A DNA stretch of 62,979 nucleotides, the filler included. It is 9 parts of 9 records of this genome, joined end to end, with 100 filler letters (N's around TTAATTAATTAA, not from the genome) between each part and the next. Parts side by side here need not be neighbours in the genome. Positions count along the whole stretch, not along the records: positions 13,060 to 19,724 come from SRR31156797_52780; 8 more parts are not named here. One strand, written 5' to 3'. A program made the position numbers and the translations under genes. The notes below the pieces were generated by a model. That model did no database searches and was not told the DNA's origin. It saw only the letters and a list, made by a program, of their open reading frames with translations. Below are positions 6,214 through 45,206 of this stretch, one piece after another (the first letter of the stretch is position 1; every line of letters starts with the position of its first letter).

Positions 6214-6313
6214 NNNNNNNNNNNNNNNNNNNNNNNNNNNNNNNNNNNNNNNNNNNNTTAATTAATTAANNNNNNNNNNNNNNNNNNNNNNNNNNNNNNN
6301 NNNNNNNNNNNNN
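6214..6313. other. Artificial contig spacer. Identical spacers lie at 12960-13059, 19725-19824, 25629-25728, 30831-30930, 36927-37026, 49796-49895 and 55345-55444
   Basis: 44 N + TTAATTAATTAA (stops in all six frames) + 44 N, repeated eight times; genes are truncated and base composition changes at the junctions. Confidence 0.98.
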
Positions 6314-6571: not shown

Positions 6572-6979
6572 CTAAACCTGTTCAACGCCCGGGTTTAAAA
6601 CCTTTTTCAACTTTTCGATAGCCGCGGCCGTTTTCAGGCGGACATAGCCCAGGGATAGCCGGTTGCCGAAAATCGTAATCAAAAGAAAATCGGCGTCTAC
6701 CTTGCTAAAGTGAATATGTTCCTTTTTCCCCTTGTGAAAAAAAAGGCTGAATTCTTCTTCCCCCAGTATATTTGCCATGCTGGCTACAGCGCCGTAGTTG
6801 CCTGCGGCCAGCGCCGCCAATGAATAAACATCGTGGGTGCAAACGCCGTCGTCCAGCGTAGCGATTATATTACCGGCCATATCTATCAGCAGCACCGTAT
6901 GGACGCCGATATCTATCAACTCATCAGCCAGTATTGCCTGCATGATATCCAACTCGTTCATGCCGAATGCATAATCCAT
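6572..6979 (-). CDS. mglB: MglB-like roadblock/LC7 protein
   Basis: LLIDMAGNII, SLAALAAGNYGA and SLGYVRL; directly upstream of mglA; GAGGGA RBS before the ATG at 6979. Confidence 0.85.
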   Translation of the reverse strand: MDYAFGMNELDIMQAILADELIDIGVHTVLLIDMAGNIIATLDDGVCTHDVYSLAALAAGNYGAVASMANILGEEEFSLFFHKGKKEHIHFSKVDADFLLITIFGNRLSLGYVRLKTAAAIEKLKKVLNPGVEQV

Positions 6980-7079
6980 ATTTCCCTCAATTCCGGGGGC
7001 CCCATGACCAGACCTTAAAAAAACACCGGGAATTATCAATTCCCGGAAAAAACATGAAAGCGCCCCGATCGCCTGAAAA

Positions 7080-7448
7080 TTATATTTGCAGATAATCAAT
7101 AACTTCCGCGTATTCTTTCATCAGCATTCTGGTCCGTCCCAGCCATTCATCTTTTTTGGTCATGATAAACAGGAAATAGGGCTTTCCACTTATGGGCCTG
7201 ATCAGGTAATAATGAGATTCCGTTGTTATCAGAATATCCTCCGGCTCCTCACCGCCGTCCAGTCGTTTAAGGGCCTTTAAATTGGACTTGACCACGCCGG
7301 CCAGATGCGCTGCCGCGGCCCCGGCTTCAATGCTGTCCACAGTGTTATATTCGGCAATGGGAAGACCTTCCTCCACCAAAACCAGGGCCGCGGCCACGAT
7401 ACCGGGAAGCTCTCCGGCAAATTCAGCTAGTTTTTTATTCAGTTCCAT
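7080..7448 (-). CDS. Roadblock/LC7-domain protein
   Basis: GIVAAALVLVEEGLPIA, EDILITTESHYYLIRPI and WLGRTR pattern. Confidence 0.8.
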   Translation of the reverse strand: MELNKKLAEFAGELPGIVAAALVLVEEGLPIAEYNTVDSIEAGAAAAHLAGVVKSNLKALKRLDGGEEPEDILITTESHYYLIRPISGKPYFLFIMTKKDEWLGRTRMLMKEYAEVIDYLQI

Positions 7449-7494
7449 AAATCATCGCTATCATTGCTTCATGTAATTTTGTATCGGCGGCGTC

Positions 7495-8817
7495 TTATCT
7501 TAAAAAAACCATGCTTCCCATGCTTTCATTCCATGTCGGCGCCCGGTTTTTATAGCTGTCAATTCTGGATTTGAGCATATCAAGCGAAGCGCCGGACATA
7601 ACCGCGGCCATGCGCAGCCAGTCCAATGGAGACCTGCTTCCCTCCACCAAGCCCAGTTCGATGATTTTGGTTATCTTCAAATCCAGATCGTCCTTGATCA
7701 TGGATGGAGGGATAAGCCTGGTCAAATCCTCGTCAATCTTTTCCCAGCCGTCACCTTCTATACGGCGGAGGGAAACCGGCCTTTCCGCCAGGCTTTGCAT
7801 GATAAGCTCGGCCGGCGTATCCAGAATCAGAAAAATGCTCTTAAGCTCCTTAAGTAACAGTCTTACATTAGCCCGGTATTCTTCGAGAACGTCATTGGTG
7901 ACGGCCGAGGTATCGCTACAGGCCAATGGGCCGTCATTGTTACTTATCAGGTCCATCAACTCTTTTTTACGCTTCCATTCCCCTACCCGGCCCACGTGCA
8001 ACAGGCCGAACTTGGATATTTCCACGGCCTTTAAAAGAATAATAAAAAAAAGAAAAGTTTTGGCCGCAATGGAAACCGGCGACAAATCCCCGTCGGGAAA
8101 ACGGAACTCAAGATGAAAGTCCGCTATCATTCCGTCATCTCCCGGGGCCAGATGTTCCAAATTTAAAAAATTTTGATGCTCCGGAACCACCCGGCTGCGT
8201 TTCAACGTTTCCTTTATCTGCCACATGGAATTGTTTGCCGGCGACAGGCCCATGATTTCCTGGTGAGCATTATGCTGACGCCTTCTCGTCAGGGTCCGGC
8301 GACTGTCTCCCCCGCTGGTCAGAAACTTCAAGCCCGGAGAATATTTGCGCACCAGGTTCCACAAGTTCGCCGCAATTATCTCCGGTATCCCTTCGGATAT
8401 TCCTATGCCGAGCATGTGAAAATGAAGTCCGCAAGTCGGACGGATGCGAACCCCCGCCTCCAGGAGAATATTCACTATTTGCCTGTACTGGCCAACCAGG
8501 GCGTCCCAGTTGGGATGCCGCCCGATCACCTGTATTTCAATCCCGCTGTGTTCCTTGATTACGTTGAATATCCCCAACCGGCCAAGGTTGTTCATGTCGC
8601 GTGACGGCTGCAGCCTTTGTTCCAACACCGGTTGGAAATCCCGACGCATTACGCCCTTGGGCAATGCAAATTCAATCTCCGTTCCAATCCTTATATCCCG
8701 ATACAACAGGTCCTGGTAATAAGCGGCTTCATCAAGGCTTAAAGCGTCCGGCCTGCGGAAAAACACAGGCGCCCCGGCTGCAGCCGTCGCGTCTTTTTGA
8801 TTATTCAACGAATTCAA
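7495..8817 (-). CDS. Putative amidoligase (COOH-NH2 ligase, glutamate-cysteine ligase/glutamine synthetase fold)
   Basis: IGTEIEF, GIEIQ, TCGLHFH and LEFRFPDG motifs in the family order; start codon uncertain. Confidence 0.72.
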   Translation of the reverse strand: MNSLNNQKDATAAAGAPVFFRRPDALSLDEAAYYQDLLYRDIRIGTEIEFALPKGVMRRDFQPVLEQRLQPSRDMNNLGRLGIFNVIKEHSGIEIQVIGRHPNWDALVGQYRQIVNILLEAGVRIRPTCGLHFHMLGIGISEGIPEIIAANLWNLVRKYSPGLKFLTSGGDSRRTLTRRRQHNAHQEIMGLSPANNSMWQIKETLKRSRVVPEHQNFLNLEHLAPGDDGMIADFHLEFRFPDGDLSPVSIAAKTFLFFIILLKAVEISKFGLLHVGRVGEWKRKKELMDLISNNDGPLACSDTSAVTNDVLEEYRANVRLLLKELKSIFLILDTPAELIMQSLAERPVSLRRIEGDGWEKIDEDLTRLIPPSMIKDDLDLKITKIIELGLVEGSRSPLDWLRMAAVMSGASLDMLKSRIDSYKNRAPTWNESMGSMVFLR

Positions 8818-9277
8818 AATTAATCCGGCAGCCCTTTACATCAGGTACGGGAGTTACGCTCCTGCGCGCCAAATGACCCATTCGAAGAAAAGCCGCATGG
8901 GTCACGTTCATCAAGGGACATATATAAGGATACTCAACAACCCCTGATTCCATGATCCTTGTCGCCAGAGCCCAGCCCATGCAGTTATGAGGCATTATGC
9001 TCAGGCCCCCCTCATATTCATCTATTTCAAAAGACTCCATGAGTCCTGTTTCATCTTCAAAAATACGGCCGATTTCCATCAATATCGTTTTAGAATCCTC
9101 GCCCGCCGTTTCCAGGCCCATTTCGTTTTCCATTATCTGGAGAATGTTTTTTCCGACATCCTGCATGGCGGCCAAAGCCGTATCCCCAAAAAGATCCCAC
9201 AAGGTAGTGGACATGCCGGTTATCATAAACCCCATCACACGCATCAATTTATATTTCTTTTCTTCCTCTGTGGCCAT
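8801..9277 (-). CDS. V4R/H-NOX-like small ligand-binding-fold protein
   Basis: Helical N-terminus followed by HNC, YICPL and a terminal GCRINF cysteine pattern; GGAG RBS. Confidence 0.55.
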   Translation of the reverse strand: MATEEEKKYKLMRVMGFMITGMSTTLWDLFGDTALAAMQDVGKNILQIMENEMGLETAGEDSKTILMEIGRIFEDETGLMESFEIDEYEGGLSIMPHNCMGWALATRIMESGVVEYPYICPLMNVTHAAFLRMGHLARRSVTPVPDVKGCRINFEFVE

Positions 9278-9321
9278 TTCAGTCTCCTTGATTCAATTCA
9301 ATATATCCGGCAAGCCGGCCG

Positions 9322-10524
9322 TCAGGACAACGCACGTACGCATTTATCAACGTATTTGTTGCTTACAAGCCTCACATTTCCAAGCGTGGATTCCCGACTG
9401 ACGGCAATGCCCAGAAAATAATCCTTGGTCAGATAATGGGTCAGCACCCATGCGTTTTTTGTTTGCACCAGGTTTTCCTCAAATTCGCCCAATCCTTTCA
9501 TATCCTTTATTGATCTTTCCACGAGCTTCATGATCATGGAAAACTTGGCGTCAAAAGCCTCTACATCCGTGCCGCTTGGATTGTAATGGGCCACGCCAAT
9601 GCCATCCATACCGACTATGCCGATAGCTATCAAGCCATCGAGCTGATCCGCCATCTCCTTCAAGATCTCCTTTAAGTCAGCCATTTGGCTCCTCCCTTCC
9701 TCTTTAACCATTTTAAGGGGCCTTTCGTTCCTCACCCCTGATTCGTCGTCTTTCAAAACAAGTTCGCCGTCATAATTGTTCGAATCTTTATCCGTCCGCC
9801 CGCCTGTGTTATCGTCGTCCAAATTTGCCATCTCATCCGCCAAAGCCTCATCCTTGAACCGGGCCGCTTCAAGTATCAAAGACATCAAGCCGCTGTTTAT
9901 ACGACGTTTGTATTTCGCGTTGGCGGGAATCTGCTTTATGTTCAGCCTGACCTGGTCCCATGTCAGCATTAACAGGGCCGCTTCTTCAGCCCTCTTCTCC
10001 CCGCAAACCGCATCGTACAGCACGCCTTCATAAAGATAAAAAATCCCATTTCTTCCCCCCTGGTCCCTCACCTCCAAAAGACATGTCTTTTGTTCCATTT
10101 CTATCATTTGCAAAAAGCCGCCCACCGATACCCCCACCAGCGACCCGACTTCCGGCCCCCTTTTTAATCCTTCCTCAAAACATGTCCTTATGTCTTCGAT
10201 GTTCAACGGCTTGTGCAATATCCGCATAACCCCCATTTTCATAAGCCGCTCTTCATTTTCGGGATCATTTCCACAAATGGATGCAATACATGGCAGGGCC
10301 GGGTGTTGCTCCGAGACCTTGGTTAAAAGTTCAAACCCGTCCATATCCGGAAGGTTCAAATCGGTCAAAATCAAATCTACCGGCTTGGATGAAAGGACGG
10401 CCAAAGCCTTTTCTCCGCTCGAAGCAGTCAGCAGGCTGAAACTCTCCTCGTACGGTTTCAACCCTTGAACAACCGCATCAAGCAAGCCGGCATCGCGATC
10501 GACCAATAATACGCTTTTTGCCAT
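9322..10524 (-). CDS. Response regulator receiver + PATAN/DUF4388 + C-terminal roadblock fusion
   Basis: REC (LILTDLNLPDMDG, HKPL), DUF4388-like (FLQMIEMEQKTCLL, GVLYDA, LMSLILEAARFKDE), acidic linker, roadblock (GIVGMDGI, STLGNVRL); GGGAGG RBS before the ATG at 10524. Confidence 0.82.
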   Translation of the reverse strand: MAKSVLLVDRDAGLLDAVVQGLKPYEESFSLLTASSGEKALAVLSSKPVDLILTDLNLPDMDGFELLTKVSEQHPALPCIASICGNDPENEERLMKMGVMRILHKPLNIEDIRTCFEEGLKRGPEVGSLVGVSVGGFLQMIEMEQKTCLLEVRDQGGRNGIFYLYEGVLYDAVCGEKRAEEAALLMLTWDQVRLNIKQIPANAKYKRRINSGLMSLILEAARFKDEALADEMANLDDDNTGGRTDKDSNNYDGELVLKDDESGVRNERPLKMVKEEGRSQMADLKEILKEMADQLDGLIAIGIVGMDGIGVAHYNPSGTDVEAFDAKFSMIMKLVERSIKDMKGLGEFEENLVQTKNAWVLTHYLTKDYFLGIAVSRESTLGNVRLVSNKYVDKCVRALS

Positions 10525-10550
10525 GCACCGCCTCCCAAAGCGGCTTTTAG

Positions 10551-10567
10551 AGCAATATGAATACCAA
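10551..10567 (-). promoter_or_regulatory. Sigma54 -24/-12 promoter of the Mgl-like operon
   Basis: Minus strand TTGGTATTCATATTGCT, GG-N10-GC spacing, just upstream of the RBS and next to a sigma54 activator gene. Confidence 0.7.
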
Positions 10568-10781
10568 AAGAAAGAATAAGTTAAATTTAGTTTAATTAAA
10601 CCCTGTTTCAACTTGAGGCCCCAACAGGCCTATCACAATAACTATTTGAAACATCACCATAATTTCGACAAATGACCGAATGATGCCAACAGTGTCAAGC
10701 TGGATTTAGAAGTGCGGAATGTGGTAAGGGGGAGAATAAGAAATGGTTGGATTAATCATTTATTCTAATAGATTTACGAAC

Positions 10782-10830
10782 TGTACCATTTTGAGCGACC
10801 TAAAAAGAACTGCTGTATCATTTCAGGTCA
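10782..10830. promoter_or_regulatory. Candidate tandem enhancer (UAS) sites for the adjacent sigma54 activator
   Basis: TGTACCATTTTGAGCGA (10782) and TGTATCATTTCAGGTCA (10814), 32 bp apart, about 220 bp upstream of the sigma54 site. Confidence 0.4.
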
Positions 10831-12234
10831 CTTAAGGCCGTATTCCTTCATTTTGCGAATGAGGGTGGACCTGGATATTTCCAGGGCGGAAGCAGCCCGG
10901 GTATGATTATTATTCAGCAGATCCAAAACATTGAGAATATGCTCTTTTTCCATATCCTTAAGCGATGGAATAATTTGCGGATTATCGTCGGGCAAAACCG
11001 TTTTTTGCTGTTCCGGGTTTGATATCAACATTTTTGAAGGATAAATGGTTTCGCCCCTGTTGAGAATAATGGACCGTTCCAATACATTGCACAATTCTCT
11101 TACATTTCCGGGCCAATCGTACCGCATCAGCCTGAATATTTCTTCATCCGGCACGGTAATTTCCCGGTTAGGGGCCAGTTTTTCCATCAAATGCCGACAT
11201 AATTCCGGAATATCATCTTTTCTTTCGCGCAACGGCGGCATGTGGACAGGCAGGACGCTGAGACGGTAAAAAAGATCCCTGCGAAAATCTCCGCTGCCGA
11301 CCGCTTTTTCCAGGTCGACATTTGTCGTGGCGATTAATCGGACTTTTACTTCTCGAAACGATTCTCCACCCAACCGCATTATTTTCTTTTCATCCAAAAC
11401 AACCAAAAGTTTTGATTGAAGCCCAACCGGAAGAATGCCGATCTCCTCCAAGGCCAGCGTGCCGCCTTCCGACATTTCAAAAATGCCTTTTTTGGTTGTA
11501 ACAGCACCGGAAAAAGCTCCTTTTTCATACCCGAAAAGCTCTGATTCTATTAGGGTTTCCGGCAATGCCGCGCAATTAATCCTGATAAACGGCTTGGCCC
11601 TGTTTACACCCTTGTAATGAATCGCCTTGGCGGCCATACTTTTTCCAGTGCCTGTTTCGCCGGTTATAAGAACGTGGGCGTTAGTATGAGCGGCCATATC
11701 GATAAGCCGGTCTATCTCGGCCAGTCCGCCCTGCGCTCCAACCATATGGGATTCTTCGCGTTTCTTTTCATTGATGTAATACTGGACCTGCTCCAGGCGT
11801 TCAAGATCCATAGCCCTGAGGGCTTTGTCAACAGCCAGTTTCAATTCCTCGAATTTTACCGGCTTGGAAAGGTAATCAAACGCCCCATGCCGGATGGCCT
11901 CTACCGCGTTTTCAAAATTAGGATACCCGGTGACAAATATTATCTTGGTCTGATCGTTATGGTACAAAATAGCCGGGCATAGGTTTTTGCCCTCTATGTC
12001 AGGCAGGTTCTGATCCAAAAGAATGACATCAACCCGGTGTTGTGAACACAAATCCACGCCCTCAATGCCGGTATGGGCGAAAAGAACCCTGGTGTTTTCT
12101 CCCTTCAGCCAGGTTGAAGCCGTGCGGCAGAAGAATTCATCATCGTCAATGATCAAAACCGTCTTATTAAAATTTTCACCCGATCCGCTTTTTTGAACGG
12201 AAGCACTGTTCATTTGATCATCCGACATTTTCAA
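10828..12234 (-). CDS. NtrC-family sigma54-dependent response regulator (REC-AAA+-HTH)
   Basis: GETGTGKS, ELFGYEKGAFSGA, FRRDLFYRL, WPGNVREL and a C-terminal Fis HTH. Confidence 0.95.
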   Translation of the reverse strand: MKMSDDQMNSASVQKSGSGENFNKTVLIIDDDEFFCRTASTWLKGENTRVLFAHTGIEGVDLCSQHRVDVILLDQNLPDIEGKNLCPAILYHNDQTKIIFVTGYPNFENAVEAIRHGAFDYLSKPVKFEELKLAVDKALRAMDLERLEQVQYYINEKKREESHMVGAQGGLAEIDRLIDMAAHTNAHVLITGETGTGKSMAAKAIHYKGVNRAKPFIRINCAALPETLIESELFGYEKGAFSGAVTTKKGIFEMSEGGTLALEEIGILPVGLQSKLLVVLDEKKIMRLGGESFREVKVRLIATTNVDLEKAVGSGDFRRDLFYRLSVLPVHMPPLRERKDDIPELCRHLMEKLAPNREITVPDEEIFRLMRYDWPGNVRELCNVLERSIILNRGETIYPSKMLISNPEQQKTVLPDDNPQIIPSLKDMEKEHILNVLDLLNNNHTRAASALEISRSTLIRKMKEYGLK

Positions 12235-12959: not shown

Positions 12960-13059
12960 NNNNNNNNNNNNNNNNNNNNNNNNNNNNNNNNNNNNNNNNN
13001 NNNTTAATTAATTAANNNNNNNNNNNNNNNNNNNNNNNNNNNNNNNNNNNNNNNNNNNN

Positions 13060-13079
13060 AATAACTGGAAATTATGAAT
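13060..13079 (+). repeat. Left copy of a 20-bp perfect inverted repeat bounding fragment 3
   Basis: AATAACTGGAAATTATGAAT; exact reverse complement at 19705-19724. Confidence 0.95.
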
Positions 13080-16000
13080 AACAGTGTGTTGAACAAATCT
13101 GTCTGGTCTCATTTTAAAAAAGCAGACGGACGATTTGACGGTCTTCTATTCGAAAAGCTCAGTAGCCACCTTTTATCGCGTGTTTATAAAGGAACATGGC
13201 AACAAACCAAACGCTCACATGACCGGGGACATGATTTTGAATTTTTGGGAGATTGCCCCCCCTCTAAAGTCTGGGCCGAATGTAAAATACATGATCGCAA
13301 GCTGCCGTTGACTGTGATCGGTAATACATTGGTTATGGCCCTAGTTGATTGCATAAACAAACTAATATTGATCTCTCATTCAGATCTTAGTCACGACTGC
13401 TCTTTACAGATTGCACATTTCGCTCGTCGAACCGGATGTGAAGTTGATGTTATTACCGGAGCAGGGCTTGACAATATCATCATTCAGTATCCTGAAATAA
13501 TAGAAAGAACCCTTGATTGTTTTGATAAAAGCACCCTGCCTGAAAAATGTATTACCTTACCTCCTGATGTAAAAATAGTCCCGGATTTCCAGCCGGATCT
13601 AGTTGTTCTCAGTGAACAAAATCAGCGCAGAGAGTTTGAATCGAAGGAAGCAGGTAGCCTTCCGGTGCTGCATCCCGGCAATGATTTTGTTGTGAATGTG
13701 CACGTACAAAATCTCATGAACAACCAAAGCGTAACGACTAAGGTTCGGGTAAGAACAAGCAGAGCTTTCGTTTGTTATCGTCATGAAGCGGATGAAAACG
13801 GTTATATTGAACAAGTTGTCGTTTCGGGACCTAATCAATTTTCAACAATCCCACTCCGTTTTCGAGTCGGTGACTATCCTGGAGAGTCGACACTCCCTCA
13901 AATTGAAGTCTTTGACCAACAGGGAAAATTGGTTGAAAGTTCAAAAGTTCAAGAAGTAGAGATCAGTGCGGTCCATTGGATTTCAAATCTGATAGGGAAG
14001 GCCGCAAATGATCTTGAGAAGTTAGTTGAAACATGTCGCGAACCAGATAAAATAAACTGTCTGATTGTTGACGGGCATAGTGGCGTCGGTAAAACACGTT
14101 TTCTTGCTGAAGTTGGTAGTAGATTATGGGATGAAGGGTATGATCTTTTACGTATTGACATGGAGGAGCTGTCAGGGAATGACGATGAAAATGGACTGCT
14201 ACTGAGACATATTTTAGCTCAAATTCATTCGCTTCCTCTTTTGGAGGCACCTGACTTTGAGGGCACCACTCTGCGCTTGGAAACTTTGCATGACAATGAT
14301 GCAAAATGGGTTGAACAGCTTCTGTATGATGGCGTTCGGTTGAAGGAAAAGGCTGATTTTGATCGTTGTGCCAGTATCTTAGCCAAGGGTCTTTCAAGCA
14401 AACATACAGCATTTCTGATTGATAATGCTCAGAATGTCTCCTCGACTGAACAGCAGGTATTTGAGAGACTGGGGAGTCTGGTTCAAGGAAAGGGCTCTGC
14501 GGTACTTCTATTTTCATTTAACGTGGACAAAATATACAGCGGCAGCCCGGGGAGTTCTTTATACGAATACTGCCAACTGCAATGTACTGTAAATACGAAC
14601 CAATGGGGAAAGTTTACACTAAATGATTTCAGACCCGAAGACGTTAGAACATTTTTGAATTCTGCGTTGCGGCCTCGCGATATACGTAAAACTCAATTCA
14701 CGGACGGGTTCCCACTCACCACTGCTGAGATAGAAAAGCACTGCGCACCTCGGCCACTTTATTTGTGGCATATGCTTCTTGAGCTACAAACTTCTGGAAT
14801 TCTTAAGCGAGAAGGATCTGCCTTTGTCCCCCGTAAAGCGAATGAATTTGTAGAAAGTATCAGGCGCCTTCCCGAGTTTACCCGGAACCTGCTTGAATAC
14901 CGATGGAGCTCAACTCTCGCCGAGGCCAAGGCTCCGGAAAGCCTCGAAACAATACGAACCCTTATAGGGTTATTTTTCAACGTCCCTTTTTGGGTGTTAG
15001 ATGGTTTGTCTATTCCCCTCGAACACATCAAGAAACTTGAGGATGCCGGATTCGTCCGCAGGGGTAATAACGATGATCTTTTGCCCAGCCATCAAGAAAT
15101 TTTTAGTTTATTTGAAGAGCAAAGGGTCTCAAAGATTAATGCCGGTAAAATCGCACAGGTTTTAGAGCTGCGTGGACAACAGAACCGGTATCTATATCAA
15201 TATTTTTCTTGCAGAGATATTCTAAACGATGTCGGGGACGAGCTTTTACGGCAATGTCTGTTACATCTTAAACATAGACGCGTTAAATCCGGAAAAGCTC
15301 AGGGAAGTCACTTCTTATATCGGCTTATTGTTATATTGGATGGCGGAATTGCAGCCGTTAATGATAAGGAGCGGTTGCAGTTATTGCACGGAGCCATAGA
15401 AAATCTGGCCCAGATAACGTCCAATAGCAGATTGTCTGATCCTCTTCATATTTGTTTTGAGCATGCCCGCAATTCAATTTCAGATTATAGTGATTCCGGA
15501 CAGGAATTTATACTGTTTGTCCACTTAATTTCAAATATTTGCTTTGCTCGTAATAAATACAACGATCCTTATGCACTGATGAAGGAAATTGTCACCGGTC
15601 CATACCGTTTTTCTTTTCCATCTGAAATAGAGAGAGAGCTTTGTTTCGGATCACTTCTCAATCGTTTAGGTGTTGCCGCAATGTGGGGAGCAAATCCCGA
15701 AGAAGCGTTGATGTTTGGCATGGATTGTCGAAATATTGCCCAAAACCTTATTAAACAGGAAGGATTAACTGCAGAGCACAGAGAAAGGGCTGTGGGGTTG
15801 TGCATTGAAACAGCGATAGATCTAGGTAATATCGGTGATATTATCCCAGGTAGCTGTGACATAAAAGAGATACTGGCCTATTGGCAGGAAGCCGCCGATT
15901 TATATGATACATTGCCGATATTGTCAGAGAAAAGGGATATGCTTGCTCCAATGGTTTCATTCTATAAAGCACGGGTTCTGATGGCCGAAAGCAACTGGGA

Positions 16001-16586
16001 TCAGTCACGAAATTTGCTTAAAAAGGCTATAGGGCTGGCCCGGAAAAACCGAAACGCATATCACGGCATAAGATGCACTATACTGCTTGTGATACTCAGC
16101 ATGCTTGAACAAACTGAGGATAAATCTCATAGTTTATCTTCCGGCATAAATCGTTTGCTTGACTCCGCTCTTGACTGGGCCGTGGCTTCCGGAATTTCAC
16201 ACGCAGAATGGGGAGGACTCCTGATCAGAGCACAAATTGCTTTTATTGGTGGTAATCATCATATAGCCGGAGAAATCGCACTGGATAGTTTAAAAGCTTT
16301 TTGTGCTACCTTGCCGGACGAAGCAATTATAGAACTGAGAGCCCCTTATCTTGCTGGTATCATGGCTATTTTGCAAATAGTTGAAATGGATTATGGCATA
16401 GTTACAACAGACCGTCATGGAGCTGGCTACCGTCAAATTTTTAGCACGCTCACAGCAGGTATTTTTGACCCGCCATGGGTTGAATTTGACTTCTGCGAAA
16501 CAACCTCTTCAATTCTTGAACATCTGCAGTCCATTGTTAAGGATGTTCCATATGTTCAGGGTGGACACCCGCTGCTAAGCCAATAA
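13074..16586 (+). CDS. Mrr-like PD-(D/E)xK nuclease - beta-rich domain - STAND-type NTPase - TPR-like protein
   Basis: FEKL...TKRSHDRGHDF...VWAECK nuclease motif; Walker A GHSGVGKT; Walker B FLIDNAQN; PRPLYL and PSHQEI helical/winged-helix motifs; helical-repeat C-terminus. Confidence 0.8.
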   Translation: MNNSVLNKSVWSHFKKADGRFDGLLFEKLSSHLLSRVYKGTWQQTKRSHDRGHDFEFLGDCPPSKVWAECKIHDRKLPLTVIGNTLVMALVDCINKLILISHSDLSHDCSLQIAHFARRTGCEVDVITGAGLDNIIIQYPEIIERTLDCFDKSTLPEKCITLPPDVKIVPDFQPDLVVLSEQNQRREFESKEAGSLPVLHPGNDFVVNVHVQNLMNNQSVTTKVRVRTSRAFVCYRHEADENGYIEQVVVSGPNQFSTIPLRFRVGDYPGESTLPQIEVFDQQGKLVESSKVQEVEISAVHWISNLIGKAANDLEKLVETCREPDKINCLIVDGHSGVGKTRFLAEVGSRLWDEGYDLLRIDMEELSGNDDENGLLLRHILAQIHSLPLLEAPDFEGTTLRLETLHDNDAKWVEQLLYDGVRLKEKADFDRCASILAKGLSSKHTAFLIDNAQNVSSTEQQVFERLGSLVQGKGSAVLLFSFNVDKIYSGSPGSSLYEYCQLQCTVNTNQWGKFTLNDFRPEDVRTFLNSALRPRDIRKTQFTDGFPLTTAEIEKHCAPRPLYLWHMLLELQTSGILKREGSAFVPRKANEFVESIRRLPEFTRNLLEYRWSSTLAEAKAPESLETIRTLIGLFFNVPFWVLDGLSIPLEHIKKLEDAGFVRRGNNDDLLPSHQEIFSLFEEQRVSKINAGKIAQVLELRGQQNRYLYQYFSCRDILNDVGDELLRQCLLHLKHRRVKSGKAQGSHFLYRLIVILDGGIAAVNDKERLQLLHGAIENLAQITSNSRLSDPLHICFEHARNSISDYSDSGQEFILFVHLISNICFARNKYNDPYALMKEIVTGPYRFSFPSEIERELCFGSLLNRLGVAAMWGANPEEALMFGMDCRNIAQNLIKQEGLTAEHRERAVGLCIETAIDLGNIGDIIPGSCDIKEILAYWQEAADLYDTLPILSEKRDMLAPMVSFYKARVLMAESNWDQSRNLLKKAIGLARKNRNAYHGIRCTILLVILSMLEQTEDKSHSLSSGINRLLDSALDWAVASGISHAEWGGLLIRAQIAFIGGNHHIAGEIALDSLKAFCATLPDEAIIELRAPYLAGIMAILQIVEMDYGIVTTDRHGAGYRQIFSTLTAGIFDPPWVEFDFCETTSSILEHLQSIVKDVPYVQGGHPLLSQ

Positions 16587-16590
16587 GCTG

Positions 16591-18567
16591 TTATTCTCTC
16601 CTTTCCACTTTGAACGGACCGAGAAATAATATATCCGAAAGCCCTTGGGTAAAAACATCAAGGACATCCTCCGCTGTTTCAACTATGGGTTGCCCTCGAC
16701 CATTAAGTGAAGTGTTAAGAACAACCGGAACTCCGGTTATTTTTTGAAATGATTTCAGTAATTTCGCAAAATGAGTATCTTCATCGCTAACAGTCTGTAT
16801 ACGGGAAGTCCCGTCGACATGAGTCACTCCGGGGAGTTGATCTCCTATGACTTTACCTGTGAACAGCATATATGGAGACGGCAGAGGAAGATCCTTAAAC
16901 CATTTGCCTGCTTCACTTTCCAAAACAGCAGGAGCAAAAGGGCGCCATAACTCTCTGTTTTTTGCCAGATTTACTTTCTGCCAAGTCTCAGACTTTCTTG
17001 CATCTGCAAGTAGTGACCTACGGCCCAGAGCCCGTGGACCCACCTCAGATGGACCCTGATACCAAGCTACGAGCTTGCCTTGCGCAATTGCTCTTGCAGC
17101 CTCACCGGAGACATCTGCGACCTGCGTCCATTCAATTAGCCCGGCACGTTTTTTCAGCTCAGACTTCATATCTTTAACAGAAGGACTTGCTGTGCTTAAA
17201 AACGGATGCTGTTCATGTTCTTTTCCTTCAGGCAAGTGTGCGCAGTTTTTGTATTCAGGACGAGGCACATTAAGTAAATGATGGGTTAAATAAAGAGCAG
17301 CCCCAACAGCCAATCCTCCATCATCACAGTTTGGTTCAATGAAAATCTGGTCGAAAGCACTTTCTTGCGCTATGCGTGTATTTGCCGGACAATTCAGAGA
17401 AACACCGCCGCTCAGACAAAGTCCTTCAGCTTCAAGCTCCAATCGTTGGATAATTTTAGACAGACATTCAACAGCAGCAAGTCTGTTCTCTTCAAAAATC
17501 AATTGTGCGCTTGCTGCCAAGTCCGCGTTTACAGGACTTATATATTTTTCAGGTTGCCCCAGTTTTGCAAGGTCTGCGCCATCAGAAACCATTGCGCGTA
17601 ATGCATTAACCAGAAAGCTGTGTCCTGCAGAAGGAAGCCCTCTGCTTTGAAGGTCTATATCATTACCGATGAAACGTTTATGGAAAAATCTGGGGGTCCC
17701 ATATGGAGCCAACCCCATAAGTTTTCCAGGAGTTCCAAGAACACTCAGACGCAGGAATTGTCCTGTCTCTTCATAAAAATAACCCAACGGGGCATAGTGA
17801 GGAGTTAGAGGCAGAATGCTGTTGCCATTTCCCCAAAAAAAACCTCCAACATTCAAAGGATGGGAGCTGTAATGCCCATCCTGAGTGAAAATTGCCGCTT
17901 GAGTGAATGGGCTGCGATAAAAGCTTGAAGCAGCATGGCTCACATGGTGATGAATAAAAGCTCCAGGGACAACCCGCCCTTCAAAGTTGATTTCAAGGGG
18001 CAGATGGAAGCCGTGTTTTCTTAATTGTTCTCCTTCAAGATTTGTATTTTCCGCTAGCGAGTTTAAGCCTTGAGCTGTCGGCCATAGCTGTTCGCCTGGA
18101 AAACTTTGAGGGACACCGAAATAGCAAAGCTCTTCTTTTGATAAATGACTGAATTCTTCAGTGAGAACCTTGTCTACAGGGTGCAAGGTGAATTCTTTCC
18201 CGTCAGTCTTCATCGCGTCAATGTAGTTGGCAGCAAGAGGGATCTCAGGGTCGAACCCGGGAATCCCCTTGGACAATTCAGCTGAAACTTTGGGTAAATA
18301 TTTGCATTTATAGTCGGGCTTAATTTGCATGCCTGGAACCAAAGCACATATTAAATCAGTGCCTTGCGTGCTGGTAATAGCTATGAAGTCTATGTCTGAA
18401 GAGTGCAGGCCTGCATTTTTTAAAGCTATTTTTATGCACTCCGAAGAAATAGCCATGGCATGTTTGTGCCTGACTTGGCGTTCGCGCAGGACATTAGCGG
18501 AAATTTTACCATCCTTAACAACACAAACAGAGCCGTCATGCCCAAAATGGATACCTAAAATATTCAT
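16591..18567 (-). CDS. O-carbamoyltransferase, NodU/CmcH/TobZ family
   Basis: GHDGSVC, HHVSHAASSF, GKLMGLAPYG, SGGVSLNC, EVGPRALGRRS, RELWRPFAP, HVDGTSRIQTV and LNTSLN motifs. Confidence 0.93.
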   Translation of the reverse strand: MNILGIHFGHDGSVCVVKDGKISANVLRERQVRHKHAMAISSECIKIALKNAGLHSSDIDFIAITSTQGTDLICALVPGMQIKPDYKCKYLPKVSAELSKGIPGFDPEIPLAANYIDAMKTDGKEFTLHPVDKVLTEEFSHLSKEELCYFGVPQSFPGEQLWPTAQGLNSLAENTNLEGEQLRKHGFHLPLEINFEGRVVPGAFIHHHVSHAASSFYRSPFTQAAIFTQDGHYSSHPLNVGGFFWGNGNSILPLTPHYAPLGYFYEETGQFLRLSVLGTPGKLMGLAPYGTPRFFHKRFIGNDIDLQSRGLPSAGHSFLVNALRAMVSDGADLAKLGQPEKYISPVNADLAASAQLIFEENRLAAVECLSKIIQRLELEAEGLCLSGGVSLNCPANTRIAQESAFDQIFIEPNCDDGGLAVGAALYLTHHLLNVPRPEYKNCAHLPEGKEHEQHPFLSTASPSVKDMKSELKKRAGLIEWTQVADVSGEAARAIAQGKLVAWYQGPSEVGPRALGRRSLLADARKSETWQKVNLAKNRELWRPFAPAVLESEAGKWFKDLPLPSPYMLFTGKVIGDQLPGVTHVDGTSRIQTVSDEDTHFAKLLKSFQKITGVPVVLNTSLNGRGQPIVETAEDVLDVFTQGLSDILFLGPFKVERRE

Positions 18568-19706
18568 TGTGCTTCCCCCTGACTTCCGGAGTAAAGCCCG
18601 GACATAGAATCAAGAGAAACAACATTGCAATGCCGGTCTATAACAATATCATGCTGGTCATGCCGCTGTTTGATCCAGTATTGGTTCGGCTGAAGCGAGC
18701 TGAGCATATCGACAAAGTAAATGACAGGTAGACTGGATTGAAGGCAGTCGTATCCGAGAACCGAGAACAAGTTGAGCTCCCCGGAGTCACGCGTCTTGGA
18801 TTTTCTGCACGGGTATTGTTGCAGCTTGGTTCGGCGGTCAATTGTCTGCGTGAATTCTCCCGGATCAGCAAGGCTGCTTAGATTTGCCCATACGGCATCT
18901 TTGGGGAAGGATCTATTTATTTTAAAGAAATCAAGCTGGGTGTCCAGCCAGCTTTCCACTCCAGACAACCATCTTTTGCCGTGACGGGAAAAATGATGCG
19001 CAGTCATTTCGGTATATCCCGTTGGAGTATGCACACCGGATGATCGCCCGTTGTGGTATGCCGAAGAACTTGTCAGGACTCCACAGTTGAAACCTGCCTT
19101 TCCGGCTCTAAGGCAAAAATCAACATCTTGAAAAAAATCAATATATGACTCGTCCATTCCCCCGAGGAAATGAAAATCATCTTTGCGAAATGCCAGTACA
19201 GCTGAGCAGACAGCAGGCCAGTAGTCTACGGATTTGTTCTTCGATGACATGTAGTTTTGTAAATCGAGGAATGAACGTCCTAGCCATGGGTGAAAATGGC
19301 CATGTTTACGTAGCCCGATTCCGCAATCGAGAACCAAATCAGTACGCGGATCAAGCAGAGTTGGTCCGACCAGATGTAATTCCGGGTTGTCGGCAAGAGA
19401 TTTAACAAGATCTTCGACACATTCTCTGGTCAGAAAAGAATCGGCATCGCAGAGACAAATGTATGATGTTTGTGCTGCATCAATGCCTGCGTTTATGGCC
19501 TTGGCATAGCCAGCAGGTCCATTGAGATCTATAATCTTAATCTGCCTTGCAATTTCGTTTGGGATAGGCGGATGATCATGAGGCGAATTGCGGACTATAA
19601 TTATAGATGAATCTTCTATGCCGGAGGTCCTCAGCGAATGAACACATGCGGATAGATGGCTTAAGCCATCATAAAACGGAATTACAATTGTGAAATCTAA
19701 AGGCAT
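18564..19706 (-). CDS. GT2-family glycosyltransferase with an extra C-terminal domain
   Basis: IVIPFYD, GYAKAINAG, CDAD (DxD) and QDVDFC motifs; ATGA overlap with the carbamoyltransferase. Confidence 0.88.
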   Translation of the reverse strand: MPLDFTIVIPFYDGLSHLSACVHSLRTSGIEDSSIIIVRNSPHDHPPIPNEIARQIKIIDLNGPAGYAKAINAGIDAAQTSYICLCDADSFLTRECVEDLVKSLADNPELHLVGPTLLDPRTDLVLDCGIGLRKHGHFHPWLGRSFLDLQNYMSSKNKSVDYWPAVCSAVLAFRKDDFHFLGGMDESYIDFFQDVDFCLRAGKAGFNCGVLTSSSAYHNGRSSGVHTPTGYTEMTAHHFSRHGKRWLSGVESWLDTQLDFFKINRSFPKDAVWANLSSLADPGEFTQTIDRRTKLQQYPCRKSKTRDSGELNLFSVLGYDCLQSSLPVIYFVDMLSSLQPNQYWIKQRHDQHDIVIDRHCNVVSLDSMSGLYSGSQGEAQ

Positions 19707-19724
19707 TCATAATTTCCAGTTATT
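19705..19724 (-). repeat. Right copy of the 20-bp inverted repeat bounding fragment 3
   Basis: Reverse complement AATAACTGGAAATTATGAAT is identical to 13060-13079. Confidence 0.95.
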
Positions 19725-19941
19725 NNNNNNNNNNNNNNNNNNNNNNNNNNNNNNNNNNNNNNNNNNNNTTAATTAATTAANNNNNNNNNNNNNNNNNNNN
19801 NNNNNNNNNNNNNNNNNNNNNNNNACTTCATGAACTTCATGTCCTTCATGGTGGTTAAAAAAGTTTGATCATGAAAGACGATGTACGACTCCTGCCCTGC
19901 CGGGCAGTTGTTTAATTTATACCATGAAGAAGGGGAGGTAA

Positions 19942-32918: not shown

Positions 32919-33206
32919 AAAATACAGCTAGGTTAATACGGCAGTACAATTTTAACAATATTTTACCAATAAGAAAACAATTCGTTAATTTTTTTATTAA
33001 GTATTCCTTCTATGTTTTATTTTTCTCTTTCATAATCGTTTTATTAATTTATTTAATCTACTAATGCTTTCTTATTCACACTCAATAGTGGCAAAATGGA
33101 ATTAAAAGCAATATTTTTGGGACAATTTGAATTTTAGCTCCCGTGCAATGCCCGTATTTTTTGCTAACATTGTAAAACCAATATAAACCATGCTAAATTT
33201 TTTGTT

Positions 33207-37603: not shown

Positions 37604-38839
37604 TTGATGAATATGTCGAAATCAAATGAAAAGGATTTTGTTCTCAACTGTATCAGGAGCAGTTTTTTCTCCGGCGATACAAGAGTGATAAACGCCTTTT
37701 TTGATAGCAGCCCGGATTGGAACAGAGTTAAAACGTTTGTGGACACGCACAACCTGGGTCCGCTTGTTTTTTACAGTTTGAAAAATAATTCTTTACTGGA
37801 CGGAATACCGCAGTCTTTCAGGGAATACCTGCTTAAAAAATACAGGGCGACCGGCCTGAAAAACACCATCCTTTTTGAGGAACTTGAGTGGGTCCTTAAA
37901 TCCCTTTCGCCATTGGGCATCGATGTCATATTGTTAAAAGGAACGGTTCTGGCGGAATACATATGGGGAAATGCTTCATTGAGACCCATGGCCGATATAG
38001 ATCTTTTGGCCCGGGAGGAGCATTGTGAAGCCATTGAAAAACTGTTGCTTGCCTCGGGTTACGTCAGCATACCCCTGGGACACTCCATGGAGACCTATAA
38101 GGAAGAGCACAGGCATATTGCACCGTTGTACCATCCAAAAAAGAAAATTTTCATAGAAATCCATAAAGATCTTTTGTCAGGTAAGACTGAACTTGAACTT
38201 GACGTCCAGGGATTATGGAAGAGGTCGGTTGTAACCGACTTTCGCGGGTCTGAAGTAAGATTGTTATCACCGGAAGACTTCCTGATCCATCTTTGCCTTC
38301 ATCATCTGGCAATCCATGACTCGGGATTGGGTGAAATCAGGGATCTGGCGGATATTGCCAAAACTGTTTCATTTTATAATCACAGTCTGGATTGGAACAG
38401 GATATTTGAAGCTGCTTTATCCGGCCATTTCATAAGGTACATTTACTTCCCGCTGCTTTTCTCCATGACATTGCTTGGAGCGCCTGTCGACGATAAAGTG
38501 ATTGCGGAATTGAGAAACAGGGCCGAACTGGCCTGGCTGAACGAAAGAATTATAAGGGGCGCCCTGAGAAACAATATTCTGCAAGCTGAAACGGTTAATA
38601 TAGTTCCATCGTGGTTTTATAAGATACTCGCCAGGGAATTGCTTCGAAATGCATCTATAAAAGAAAAATTCAGTTCCTTTTTGAAAAGCGTTGCAGTTAA
38701 AACAAGCGCGCCTACCGATGCCGGCCACAATGGTGTAGATAGTAGACAGGTCAGTCTTAATCCTGTTAGAATACTATCGATGTTTCTTTATAAGCTAAGT
38801 AGAAACTTTTTCCTTATCTTAAACAGAAAAATAAGGTAA
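37604..38839 (+). CDS. Nucleotidyltransferase-family protein (NTP_transf_5-like)
   Basis: VILLKG, LRPMADIDLL, IEIH, LIHLCLH and LADI motifs. Confidence 0.85.
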   Translation: MMNMSKSNEKDFVLNCIRSSFFSGDTRVINAFFDSSPDWNRVKTFVDTHNLGPLVFYSLKNNSLLDGIPQSFREYLLKKYRATGLKNTILFEELEWVLKSLSPLGIDVILLKGTVLAEYIWGNASLRPMADIDLLAREEHCEAIEKLLLASGYVSIPLGHSMETYKEEHRHIAPLYHPKKKIFIEIHKDLLSGKTELELDVQGLWKRSVVTDFRGSEVRLLSPEDFLIHLCLHHLAIHDSGLGEIRDLADIAKTVSFYNHSLDWNRIFEAALSGHFIRYIYFPLLFSMTLLGAPVDDKVIAELRNRAELAWLNERIIRGALRNNILQAETVNIVPSWFYKILARELLRNASIKEKFSSFLKSVAVKTSAPTDAGHNGVDSRQVSLNPVRILSMFLYKLSRNFFLILNRKIR

Positions 38840-38876
38840 ACGGCCGAAACAGAGCATTTCCCCGGAGATAAACCTC

Positions 38877-39878
38877 TTGTCACATGATATTGTCATTTCA
38901 AATTTGACCAAGAAATTCCCAAAAATAAAAAGATACCGGGAAATGCTGCTTCATCCGTTCAGACGCGAGGATGTAACAGTCCTTGATGATATTAATTTGC
39001 AGGTGAAAAAGGGGGAATTGTTCGGTCTTTTAGGGCCAAACGGCGCTGGTAAAACAACCTTGTTGAAAATACTGGCGACCCTTGTTTTACCCACAACCGG
39101 CCAGGTTTCAGTCATGGGGCGCGATGTGCGAACCAGACATGCGGAAGTGAAAAAAGACATCGGGTACGTTTTGTCTGAAGAAAGGAGCTTCTACTGGCGG
39201 TTGACGGTCAGGCAGAACCTGAAATTTTTTGCAACACTGAACAATATGTCCGGTTCGCAGGCCGCCAGGCGCATAGATGAACTGATCGAAATAGTCGGTC
39301 TGCACAAAGAAATTGATAAAGTCTTTCAGACGCTTTCTTCCGGAATGAAGCAAAAGGCGGCAATAGCCCGCGGATTGTTAACAAATCCGAATATTTTACT
39401 GCTTGATGAACCGACAAGAACTCTTGACCCCATTGTGACCCTGAATCTGAGAACCTTTTTTAAATCGGTAATCGTGGAAAAACTCGGAAAGACGGTTGTT
39501 CTCGCTACCAATAATATGCATGAAGCGGAAGAACTCTGTGAGCGTATTGCTATCATCAATAACGGTAAAGTGATTCTATGCGAATATACGGATGAAGTCA
39601 GGCGCAGGCTTAAAGGCAAGGAAACAATCAGAGTAGAATTCAAGGGGAACGATCATGGATTCAAAATGTCGGATTGCTACTCCTTGTTAAAAGAAAAAAT
39701 CGTGGATATCCAGCCTCTGGCATCGGAAAACGGCAAGTGCAGCGTCATGCTGGAGATAGACCCGGATACGGATGAGACTTCCGAAATAATAAAAATATTT
39801 ATAAATAATAACATCAGGGTGACGTCAGTTGTTCGTGAAGAAATATCGCTGACCGAGGTCTTTAAAAGGGTGATCTGA
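38877..39878 (+). CDS. ABC-2 exporter ATP-binding protein
   Basis: GPNGAGKTT, LSSGMKQK and LLLDEPT motifs. Confidence 0.93.
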   Translation: MSHDIVISNLTKKFPKIKRYREMLLHPFRREDVTVLDDINLQVKKGELFGLLGPNGAGKTTLLKILATLVLPTTGQVSVMGRDVRTRHAEVKKDIGYVLSEERSFYWRLTVRQNLKFFATLNNMSGSQAARRIDELIEIVGLHKEIDKVFQTLSSGMKQKAAIARGLLTNPNILLLDEPTRTLDPIVTLNLRTFFKSVIVEKLGKTVVLATNNMHEAEELCERIAIINNGKVILCEYTDEVRRRLKGKETIRVEFKGNDHGFKMSDCYSLLKEKIVDIQPLASENGKCSVMLEIDPDTDETSEIIKIFINNNIRVTSVVREEISLTEVFKRVI

Positions 39879-39883
39879 CAGAT

Positions 39884-40699
39884 ATGCTTGTGTCTTTTAA
39901 AAAACCTTTGGCATTCCTTTACAAGGATTTCATAAATGAAACAAGCTACAAGTTTGCATTTGTCACGCAGATATTCGGCATATTTTTATCCGTTTTGTCC
40001 TTCTTTTTTCTGTCCAAGCTGATCGGCGGCGCAGCCGCTTCATACCTCGAGTCCTATGGCGGCGATTATTTCTCGTTTGTTCTGGTTGGGATAGCTCTTG
40101 GCGGCTATTTACAGGTGTCCCTTCGCGGATTTTCAACTATTATCAGGAGCGCACAGACGCTCGGCACACTTGAGGCATTGTTGGTCACTCAGACGAGCAT
40201 TCCAACAATAATCCTGTCTTCAACAATCTATAGCTTTCTTCTGACTTCATTCAGAATAGTTATCTACTTATTATTCGGGATTCTTTTTTTGGGCTTCAAC
40301 ATATCAAAAGCAAATTACCCGGGGGCTTTAATAATCCTTGGGTTGACGATAATCTGTTTCAGCAGTTTCGGCGTCTTGTCCGCCAGTTTTATCATGGTTT
40401 TCAAAAGGGGCAACCCTATGAACTGGGCTTTTACCGGAGTATCATGGCTTTTGGGAGGCGTTTATTATCCCATATCGGTATTACCTGAATGGGTGCAAAA
40501 AATATCTTTTTTCTTACCGATTACCCATTCTCTGGAAGGTATGAGACAAGCCTTGATCAACGGCGCCGATCTGATGCAACTGGCGCCAAGCATAATCGCT
40601 CTGATTCTTTTTTCGGTAGTCATGATTCCTGTCAGTCTCTGGGCTTTCAATTATGCGGTCATTAAAGCCAAGGAGTATGGTTCGTTAATACAATACTGA
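39884..40699 (+). CDS. ABC-2 exporter permease
   Basis: About six TM segments; GTLEALLVT and GVYYPISVLP motifs. Confidence 0.9.
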   Translation: MLVSFKKPLAFLYKDFINETSYKFAFVTQIFGIFLSVLSFFFLSKLIGGAAASYLESYGGDYFSFVLVGIALGGYLQVSLRGFSTIIRSAQTLGTLEALLVTQTSIPTIILSSTIYSFLLTSFRIVIYLLFGILFLGFNISKANYPGALIILGLTIICFSSFGVLSASFIMVFKRGNPMNWAFTGVSWLLGGVYYPISVLPEWVQKISFFLPITHSLEGMRQALINGADLMQLAPSIIALILFSVVMIPVSLWAFNYAVIKAKEYGSLIQY

Positions 40700-40758
40700 T
40701 TTTTGCTCCGTTGCAAATGCTTATTTTTGAGATAAAAGTTTAATTAAGGGACGTTGAT

Positions 40759-42554: not shown

Positions 42555-42582
42555 TGGATTAAGGCGCTTTGATAGAAGAACA

Positions 42583-43689: not shown

Positions 43690-43713
43690 TCCATCTCTAT
43701 TTAAAGGACGCTT

Positions 43714-44673: not shown

Positions 44674-45189
44674 CCAAAAGACGTTGGGGGTAACAATTCA
44701 TTTTACACACAGGCAATAGTAATAAGTTGGGATTGGAGTTGAAGGAAGAAGGCCTTTCCGGGGAGGTAATTTAATTAACATTTAGTATTACACAAAGGCC
44801 GAAAGACGATGATAAAATTCCACATATTTTTGTTATTTTTCTCTTTCATAACAAATTGAAAAACACATCTGTCAAAAACTGTTGTAACAAACCTGGAAAA
44901 TTGCTAATAAAAAGGTATACTAAATCGGCAAACCTTAAGACCTGATAAAAATATCGGTTTTTTAGGGATATTTTTTAATCGCATTTTACTGGATGAATTG
45001 GCGTATTTTGGTGCTGTTAATTTAATATGATGAAATTACAGGTAATATTTAGCTGTTTGGCGGTTTGTGCTCACGGCCGGCAGTCATGTATAAAAAAAAC
45101 TGGCGGCTGAATACCGGGCGATCATGTGGTAATTATTTTTTTTAAGGATATATTATAAATAGGTGATGAAATACTGGGGTTAAAAATCA

Positions 45190-45206
45190 CTGGTATTTAT
45201 ATTGCT
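45190..45206 (+). promoter_or_regulatory. Candidate sigma54 -24/-12 promoter upstream of khpA
   Basis: CTGGTATTTATATTGCT, GG-N10-GC spacing. Confidence 0.55.

Follow-up and report, generated by a model that had tools for sequence, protein, structure and literature searches.

A perfect 20-bp inverted repeat across two start codons at the ends of a three-gene metagenomic contig, a candidate invertible cassette

Genes and terminal repeat of the contig

The DNA analysed here, a stretch of 62,979 bases (hereafter the window), represents several loci and not one. It consists of nine fragments of 5.1 to 12.8 kb each, with guanine-cytosine (GC) contents of 0.38 to 0.65, separated by runs of N around the linker TTAATTAATTAA (at 6214-6313, 12960-13059, 19725-19824 and onward). 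Because unrelated contigs have been joined by linkers, neighbouring fragments are uninformative about each other's genomic context. Our subject is fragment 3 (13060-19724; 6665 bp, GC 0.44), which is one whole contig of a metagenome-type assembly and is bounded by a perfect 20-bp inverted repeat that overlaps the start codons of two inward-facing gene units. We tentatively read it as a cassette that can be inverted relative to its flanks. The contig is 99.4% coding and carries three complete genes (Table 1), its composition profile is flat along its length, and an Rfam scan of it gave 0 matches. Open reading frame (ORF) 1 encodes a putative nuclease/STAND NTPase, ORF2 a predicted O-carbamoyltransferase, and ORF3 a predicted family-2 glycosyltransferase (GT2).

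The left arm of the repeat, AATAACTGGAAATTATGAAT (13060-13079 on the plus strand), returns as its exact reverse complement at 19705-19724, with a spacing of 6625 bp between the arms. These are the only two matches to the 20-mer in the whole window with up to three mismatches allowed, whereas 100 shuffles yielded 0 matches and 0 are expected by chance. Identity stops abruptly at the inner edge of the arms: at base 21 the left arm is followed by A and the right arm by G, and the following 40 nt match at 13 of 40 positions. This is the only 20-mer that is repeated anywhere in the window; there is no repeated 21-mer, and the longest internal repeat is 19 bp. Compared with its own reverse complement, the 20-mer matches at 6 of 20 positions and so has no dyad symmetry. 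No terminal repeat, inverted or direct, was found in the other eight fragments. Most of these end within genes, unlike fragment 3, in which two complete genes begin 14 and 18 nt from the ends. The ends of fragment 3 were therefore set by the repeat and not by coverage. The repeat at the contig ends is not a product of chance: both ends lie exactly on the arms, which rules out a coincidence between the contig ends and the repeat.

The two gene starts are built into the repeat. The ATG of ORF1 occupies repeat positions 15-17 and that of ORF3 positions 19-21, two of its nucleotides being within the arm. Frame 1 of the repeat reads NNWKL followed by a stop, which gives an ATGA overlap on the left and TGA-ATG on the right. 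Each gene is also preceded by a stop in its own frame: for ORF1 a TAA occupies repeat positions 3-5, and for ORF3 a TGA adjoins the ATG on its 5' side. Relatives of both proteins begin at the same residues. Since an in-frame stop within the repeat precedes each gene and both genes are complete, upstream sequence cannot be fused to either of them, and a shufflon-type swap of N-terminal parts is excluded by these stops on both sides. The trinucleotide GGA in the left arm could act as a weak ribosome-binding site. A promoter and terminator scan of fragment 3 detected no promoter-like site 5' of either start and no terminator-like site between the convergent stops. With upstream room inside the contig of just 14 nt for ORF1 and 18 nt for ORF3, the promoters of both units must lie outside it.

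A preliminary description of this DNA had reported the exact terminal repeat, the inward orientation of the two units (ORF1 on one strand, ORF3 and ORF2 on the other), the overlap of the repeat with both ATG codons, the NNWKL reading with its two stop-start junctions, and the lack of matching ends on the other fragments. All of these observations held when we re-examined the sequence (for the last, 0 of 8 fragments). Two shorter recurrences were considered as possible signals and dismissed as probably due to chance: AATAAC, which occurs 10 times in fragment 3, and the 9-mer GAATAACAG, which covers the first codons of ORF1 (13076-13084) and is found again, inverted, at the stop-to-stop junction (16588-16596).

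Table 1. Features of fragment 3, with positions counted along the whole window
Feature	Position	Strand	Description
Left arm of the repeat	13060..13079	+	GGA; ORF1 ATG at 13074-13076; TAA in the ORF1 frame at 13062-13064; TGA of frame 1 at 13075-13077
ORF1	13074..16586	+	1170 residues; putative Mrr-like nuclease/STAND NTPase/TPR protein, Avs-like plan
Putative Mrr-like nuclease domain	13074..13493	+	ORF1 residues ~1-140; PD-(D/E)xK; D54, E69, K71
Predicted STAND NTPase core	13980..14663	+	ORF1 residues ~303-530; Walker A GVGKT, Walker B LIDN
Helical repeat/TPR-like array	15111..16553	+	ORF1 residues ~680-1160; presumed sensor; from domain match, model and Foldseek
Convergent stop-to-stop junction	16584..16593	.	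stops 4 nt apart
ORF2	16591..18567	-	658 residues; predicted O-carbamoyltransferase, NodU/CmcH/TobZ type; start overlaps the ORF3 stop (ATGA)
ORF3	18564..19706	-	380 residues; predicted family-2 glycosyltransferase; conserved C-terminal extension
Right arm of the repeat	19705..19724	-	exact reverse complement of the left arm; TGA directly before the ORF3 ATG (19706-19704)

The three proteins and their relatives

A domain scan of ORF1 returned AAA_16 and AAA_22 above cutoff, along with weak matches to TPR (TPR_12) and nSTAND models. Its own match to Mrr_cat falls below cutoff (E = 0.18). A profile search with ORF1 gave 381 representative relatives at E <= 0.001. We scanned 30 more distant family members, chosen from 150 listed as the best rows with one long match, and Mrr_cat was found at or above cutoff, at the same N-terminal position, in 10 of the 30. 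Residues D50, D54, E69 and K71 are kept in 4 of 4 close relatives of full length; the lysine of Walker A and the aspartate of Walker B are kept in 5 of 5. Look-alike clusters in the Atlas consist of Mrr_cat/AAA_22/TPR_12 proteins of about 1100 residues. The preliminary description had called ORF1 a nuclease outright. That label keeps indirect support from the Mrr_cat matches of relatives and from the conserved motif, but the protein's own match does not reach the cutoff, and we therefore refer to a putative nuclease.

The structure model of ORF1 has a mean predicted local distance difference test (pLDDT) score of 70.3, with values below 50 at residues 39-131 in the nuclease domain, and shows a beta-sandwich, a P-loop domain and a long helical array. 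A Foldseek search with this model recovered the STAND-TPR protein 6mfv (E = 4.5e-10), Avs3 (8dgc, E = 2e-7) and Avs4 (8dgf, E = 7.5e-5), with a MalT-related chain also among the best matches; the TM-scores were low (0.14-0.18). A sequence search of the PDB with the ORF1 profile found nothing meaningful. PADLOC assigned 0 families to ORF1 and none to ORF2 or ORF3, and among the 30 ORF1 family members it left 27 without a match and gave three weak matches confined to the P-loop. ORF1 thus shares the plan of Avs3 and Avs4, an N-terminal nuclease-like effector followed by a STAND NTPase and a C-terminal TPR-like array, but differs from them in having no PADLOC match, low TM-scores and no sequence match in the PDB. 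ORF1 follows an Avs-like plan yet falls outside the catalogued Avs families.

ORF2 contains both Carbam_trans_N (E = 3e-36) and Carbam_trans_C (E = 1e-53) and matches the solved chains of NovN, TobZ and GdmN (E = 1e-55 to 1e-49). It is predicted to be an O-carbamoyltransferase of the NodU/CmcH family, and against the NodU equivalog model it scores 148 bits, where the cutoff is 1000. The domain content and the matches to solved chains are thus those of TobZ, NovN and GdmN. However, enzymes of that type sit in antibiotic or Nod-factor clusters, whereas ORF2 adjoins a putative STAND nuclease gene. The N-terminal GT-A domain of ORF3 matches PF00535 (E = 7e-16, 59 bits against a cutoff of 23.3), and GT2 chains in the PDB were also matched, which identifies the protein as a probable family-2 glycosyltransferase. 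Its structure model was too poor for a structure search (mean pLDDT 54.9); its C-terminal extension is conserved. No 19-residue stretch of ORF2 or ORF3 is strongly hydrophobic, the maxima being 1.31 and 1.19, respectively. The conserved partnership of ORF1 with these two enzymes goes unmentioned in a survey of STAND proteins, a search of which gave 0 occurrences of the terms "glycosyltransferase" and "carbamoyl".

Relatives of all three proteins were found. A word-indexed search with ORF1 gave six matches at E <= 0.001, the best four being 55, 51, 45 and 42% identical. The best relatives of the GT2 are 57, 53 and 52% identical, and those of the carbamoyltransferase 64, 61, 56 and 56% (relatives' proteins P0004-P0007, P0010-P0012 and P0023-P0026). 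We judged co-location of the relatives' genes from shared contig sizes (9586, 7592, 7582 and 919,610 bp). By this measure all three genes are together in three of the four relatives, on the contigs of 9586, 7592 and 7582 bp. The contig of 919,610 bp (P0005/P0024) carries a relative of ORF1 and of the carbamoyltransferase only. On it the ORF1 relative is shorter by about 160 residues at the N-terminus, where the nuclease domain would be, and the search, within the length range it covered, turned up no GT2 relative. This contig of chromosomal size thus seems to be without the two outer ends of the module. The pairwise identities of the three proteins change in parallel across the relatives. Together with the shared contig sizes, this indicates that the trio is inherited as a unit and that fragment 3 was put together correctly in its interior and is no chimera there.

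The three proteins encoded on the 7592- and 7582-bp contigs are 48, 66 and 55% identical to one another, yet the contigs differ in size by 10 bp. This suggests a discrete unit of about 7.55 kb, some 1 kb larger than the module. One reading of these sizes is that the relatives' contigs are whole circles, and that fragment 3 likewise derives from a small circular replicon of about 7.5 kb, closed by an inverton of about 0.9 kb with the same repeats between divergent ORF1 and ORF3, the contig of which would be too short to be represented in the window. The two genes would then be transcribed away from the missing segment, a usual position for an invertible promoter. We regard such a circle as very unlikely: no replication gene is present, about 1 kb would hardly accommodate an origin together with promoters or a recombinase, one of the relatives is on a contig of 919,610 bp and hence chromosomal, and there is no plasmid match.

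The module was sought further in genomes, plasmids and phages. Scanning genome contigs with the alignment of the ORF1 family gave 149 stretches with a pattern match, of which one was confirmed, a weak P-loop match (Actinomadura, L001), and no real relative. The plasmid and phage collections yielded no tblastn match to ORF1. For the carbamoyltransferase and the GT2, the matches listed among plasmids are 29% and 22-27% identical, respectively, compared with 51-64% for the relatives in the module. The trio, which is absent from PADLOC and conserved across five deeply diverged lineages, may be an uncatalogued functional module. In the literature we found no title or abstract describing this gene trio or such an inverton-defence arrangement, though comparable loci may be present in the supplementary tables of PMC9881135. 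The combination of an Mrr-STAND-TPR protein with a carbamoyltransferase and a GT2 is of interest independently of any switch.

Why the contig ends at the repeat

We simulated compacted de Bruijn graphs in which fragment 3 was placed between random 3-kb flanks that do not extend the repeat, with three replicates at each of k = 21, 22, 31, 55 and 127. The simulation leaves out the bubble popping and read pairs that real assemblers use. With both orientations of the segment present, a unitig identical to fragment 3 was obtained in 15 of 15 runs, and the same result was obtained when the segment stood between two different pairs of flanks (15/15). With a fixed orientation and a 20-bp repeat, the graph broke at k = 21 only, and at every other k the unitig continued through the repeat (12,665 bp). 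With a fixed orientation and an 820-bp inverted duplication ending in the 20-mer, the terminal repeat had a length of k-1 and so matched fragment 3 at k = 21 only. Both fixed scenarios thus reproduced fragment 3 in 3 of 15 runs each, all at k = 21. It follows that either the effective k was 21, or the segment occurs in two contexts and the repeat really is 20 bp long. Current multi-k metagenome assemblers end at k well above 21, which makes us lean toward real heterogeneity. A short inverted repeat that caps a contig can in this way flag structural heterogeneity without read mapping, provided that k is known.

A fixed orientation without any switch is somewhat unlikely in our judgement. It would involve an inverted repeat of at least 20 bp, which might be a long duplication, in inverted orientation, of a promoter or gene lying upstream, or a pair of insertion sequence (IS) copies facing opposite ways. 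The contig would have been cut there by an assembler working at k = 21, or by one that keeps 20 nt of a collapsed repeat on each adjoining contig. At k = 21 both the plain 20-bp repeat and the 820-bp duplication reproduce fragment 3 in 3 of 3 replicates, 20 is k-1 for this k, and the window, with no repeated 21-mer and no internal repeat longer than 19 bp, is compatible with it. The NNWKL reading in frame 1 could also be the tail of a duplicated upstream gene. On the other hand, at k = 22, 31, 55 and 127 the unitig either ran through or ended in a repeat of k-1 in 12 of 12 runs per variant, and multi-k assemblers, as noted, finish at larger k. Moreover, chance would have to place the boundary of the duplication or IS within a few nucleotides of both gene starts, where it would supply the ATG of ORF1 and part of that of ORF3. 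The preliminary description had offered inversion and a longer collapsed inverted duplication as equally possible explanations. These were the right two alternatives, but they do not account for the contig equally easily, as the duplication fits at k = 21 only. If the repeat is a mere break at that k, the finding is an ordinary one.

The reading that we favour, though with less than even confidence, is that fragment 3 is a promoterless, two-ended cassette with real 20-bp inverted repeats, present in the sampled population in both orientations relative to its flanks. A switch of this kind is plausible and somewhat favoured. Among the readings that involve heterogeneity, inversion is preferred because it accounts best for a repeat that forms part of both translation starts. 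The assembly graph would have broken at the outer edges of the repeat since both orientations of the cassette coexisted. The sequence that the cassette adjoins may be chromosomal, or it could be a short piece closing a small circle. A site-specific recombinase encoded outside the contig would invert the 6.6-kb segment at the repeats. In one orientation, ORF1 would be coupled, by way of the ATGA overlap, to a promoter beyond the contig or to an upstream gene whose stop is the TGA of the repeat. In the other orientation, the same input from the flank would be coupled to the GT2 and carbamoyltransferase genes through TGA-ATG. Transcription of the active unit might read through the 4-nt gap between the stops, where there is no terminator, and run antisense over the silent unit. 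Programmed inversions flanked by inverted repeats, some of them without a nearby recombinase gene, are described in the available text of Milman, Yelin and Kishony (2023; PMC9881135), and according to the consulted part of PMC6927303 a Bacteroides assembly proved difficult to resolve because of invertible regions flanked by such repeats.

The simulation serves equally well for a segment that occurs in at least two contexts because it moves. A cassette that is mobile and ends in 20-bp inverted repeats, for instance a non-autonomous transposon-like unit, gives a unitig identical to fragment 3 at every k (15/15 runs), and terminal inverted repeats of about 20 bp are typical of DDE transposons. 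The 7592- and 7582-bp contigs of relatives, with their divergent proteins, would fit a discrete unit that exceeds the module by about 1 kb, and the 919,610-bp contig, with a shortened ORF1 relative and no GT2 found, looks as if the ends of such a unit had been eroded. Measured against DDE transposons, fragment 3 has the terminal inverted repeats, but a transposase gene was not found. No transposase or integrase family is represented among its three proteins, the end genes start within the repeats without promoters, so that their expression would depend on the insertion context, and the plasmid and phage collections gave no match. We consider mobility of the cassette unlikely. A genuine linear element ending in 20-bp inverted terminal repeats would be expected to yield a contig of precisely this form whatever the k. 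However, none of the three proteins is a polymerase, a terminal protein or another replication protein, coding begins 14-18 nt from the ends, and phage and plasmid matches are lacking, all of which makes a linear element extremely improbable.

A technical origin of the repeat also deserves mention. The contig could be a chimeric or fold-back library product, or its matching ends could have been produced by trimming or merging after assembly. Repeats at contig ends are a known site of assembly artefacts. Against this, the synteny of the interior is confirmed by the relatives, the repeat covers two start codons with proper stop-start geometry for two different genes, and fold-back chimeras join nearby repeats, whereas the arms here are 6.6 kb apart. 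In addition, nothing similar occurs in the other eight contigs. We think an artefact highly unlikely, at about the level of the circular replicon or slightly below it. In the portion of PMC12807716 that was available, terminal repeats are treated as a topology call, and assembly artefacts are mentioned in connection with concatemers.

Several points weigh against the invertible cassette that we favour. Support for two orientations is indirect and comes from the simulation, and with an assembler k of 21 heterogeneity is unnecessary. The preliminary description had proposed looking for a site-specific recombinase near the segment; none is encoded by the three genes of the contig, although the flanks outside it could still hold one, and none was found among the 50 ORFs of the other, unlinked fragments, where fragment 1 has a transposase only. 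The lack of dyad symmetry in the 20-mer (6 of 20 positions) is a further difficulty. Contigs of relatives exceed the module by 0.9-3 kb, so they do not break at its ends. Co-inheritance of the three genes suggests a joint function, which fits poorly with mutually exclusive expression. The published survey of inversions is also not in agreement with our case in several respects. In the available text of PMC9881135, gene-altering inversions were searched for with repeats of at least 22 bp, and enrichment is reported for repeats 44 bp or longer, for arms no more than 2588 bp apart, and for an asymmetry between gene and pseudogene. Fragment 3, with its 20-bp repeat, 6625-bp spacing and two intact genes, misses these filters and enriched attributes. 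The same text lists "glycosyltransferase" neighbours at an odds ratio of 0.684.

A true toggle would go further than an invertible cassette. In that case one flip would yield either the Mrr-type nuclease/STAND sensor or the glycosyl- and carbamoyl-transferring pair, never both, and the locus would be a new defence unit regulated by inversion. The two states could be alternative anti-phage states, or the pair could make the type of modification that the nuclease attacks. We hold this stronger version to be distinctly unlikely, more so than a mobile cassette.

The genes on the nine fragments are ordinary ones from unrelated bacteria. Fragment 1 has an IS-like pair at 439-2722, formed by a helix-turn-helix ORF (439-996) and a Transposase_29 ORF (1052-2722, E = 3e-171). 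On fragment 2 (6572-12234), two Roadblock/LC7 ORFs adjoin a response regulator with DUF4388 and a sigma-54 activator. Fragment 7 carries a cluster (37604-48701) of NTP_transf_5, ABC transporter, O-methyltransferase, GT2, family-1 glycosyltransferase (GT1) and radical-SAM genes, and, farther on, encodes a TPR-CHAT protein (46239-48701). A 19-bp AT-rich stretch is identical at 33017-33035 (fragment 6) and 44833-44851 (fragment 7). Both copies are intergenic, and the match may be due to chance or reflect a common regulatory motif.

Comparison with known inversion systems

In the Mu G and P1 C segments (inverted by Gin and Cin) and in the Moraxella pilin inversion (Piv), a kb-scale segment with short inverted repeats carries two inward, promoterless gene sets, one of which is driven from a single outside flank. 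In these systems the repeat is inside coding sequence, and a constant N-terminal part is joined to alternative C-terminal parts of paralogues. Fragment 3 is alike in its kb-scale segment, its short repeats and its inward units without promoters of their own. It differs in that its genes are complete and unrelated in function, in the in-frame stops within the repeat, and in having no invertase gene on the contig. The analogy to Mu G and shufflons drawn in the preliminary description therefore holds loosely: an outside promoter or upstream gene could be re-coupled by inversion, but there is no constant N-terminal part that could be swapped, given the in-frame stops. Sites of the Hin/Gin/Cin type have dyad symmetry, which the 20-mer of fragment 3 does not share.

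The sap locus of Campylobacter fetus (about 6 kb) and the Hin-controlled H segment of Salmonella (about 1 kb) offer a second comparison. In the former, inversion picks one of two opposite genes behind a single promoter, and the same description applies to the latter. The promoter lies within the inverting piece, and the C. fetus repeats consist of several hundred bp of conserved 5' coding sequence. Fragment 3 resembles these systems in scale and in its oppositely oriented genes, whereas its promoter must be outside the contig and its repeat is 20 bp.

Milman, Yelin and Kishony (2023; PMC9881135), in the available text, connect inverted repeats with coding sequences on opposite strands, some of the repeats overlapping a start codon, and name defence genes as frequent targets. 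Fragment 3 shares the start-codon overlap and the opposite-strand genes with the inversions described there. It differs from them in that neither arm is strictly inside coding sequence, each arm extending upstream of a gene start.

Relative to Mu G, P1 C, Moraxella and C. fetus, its closest counterparts in function, the new points in fragment 3 would be that whole unrelated genes are swapped, that the crossover falls on start codons, and that a 20-bp repeat acts across 6.6 kb. If this reading is true, the locus would represent a programmed inversion that swaps two whole unrelated genes at one expression site, with a 20-bp joint serving two start codons. This would contrast with both promoter flipping and the exchange of protein tails, and would tie phase variation to an Avs-like immune sensor.

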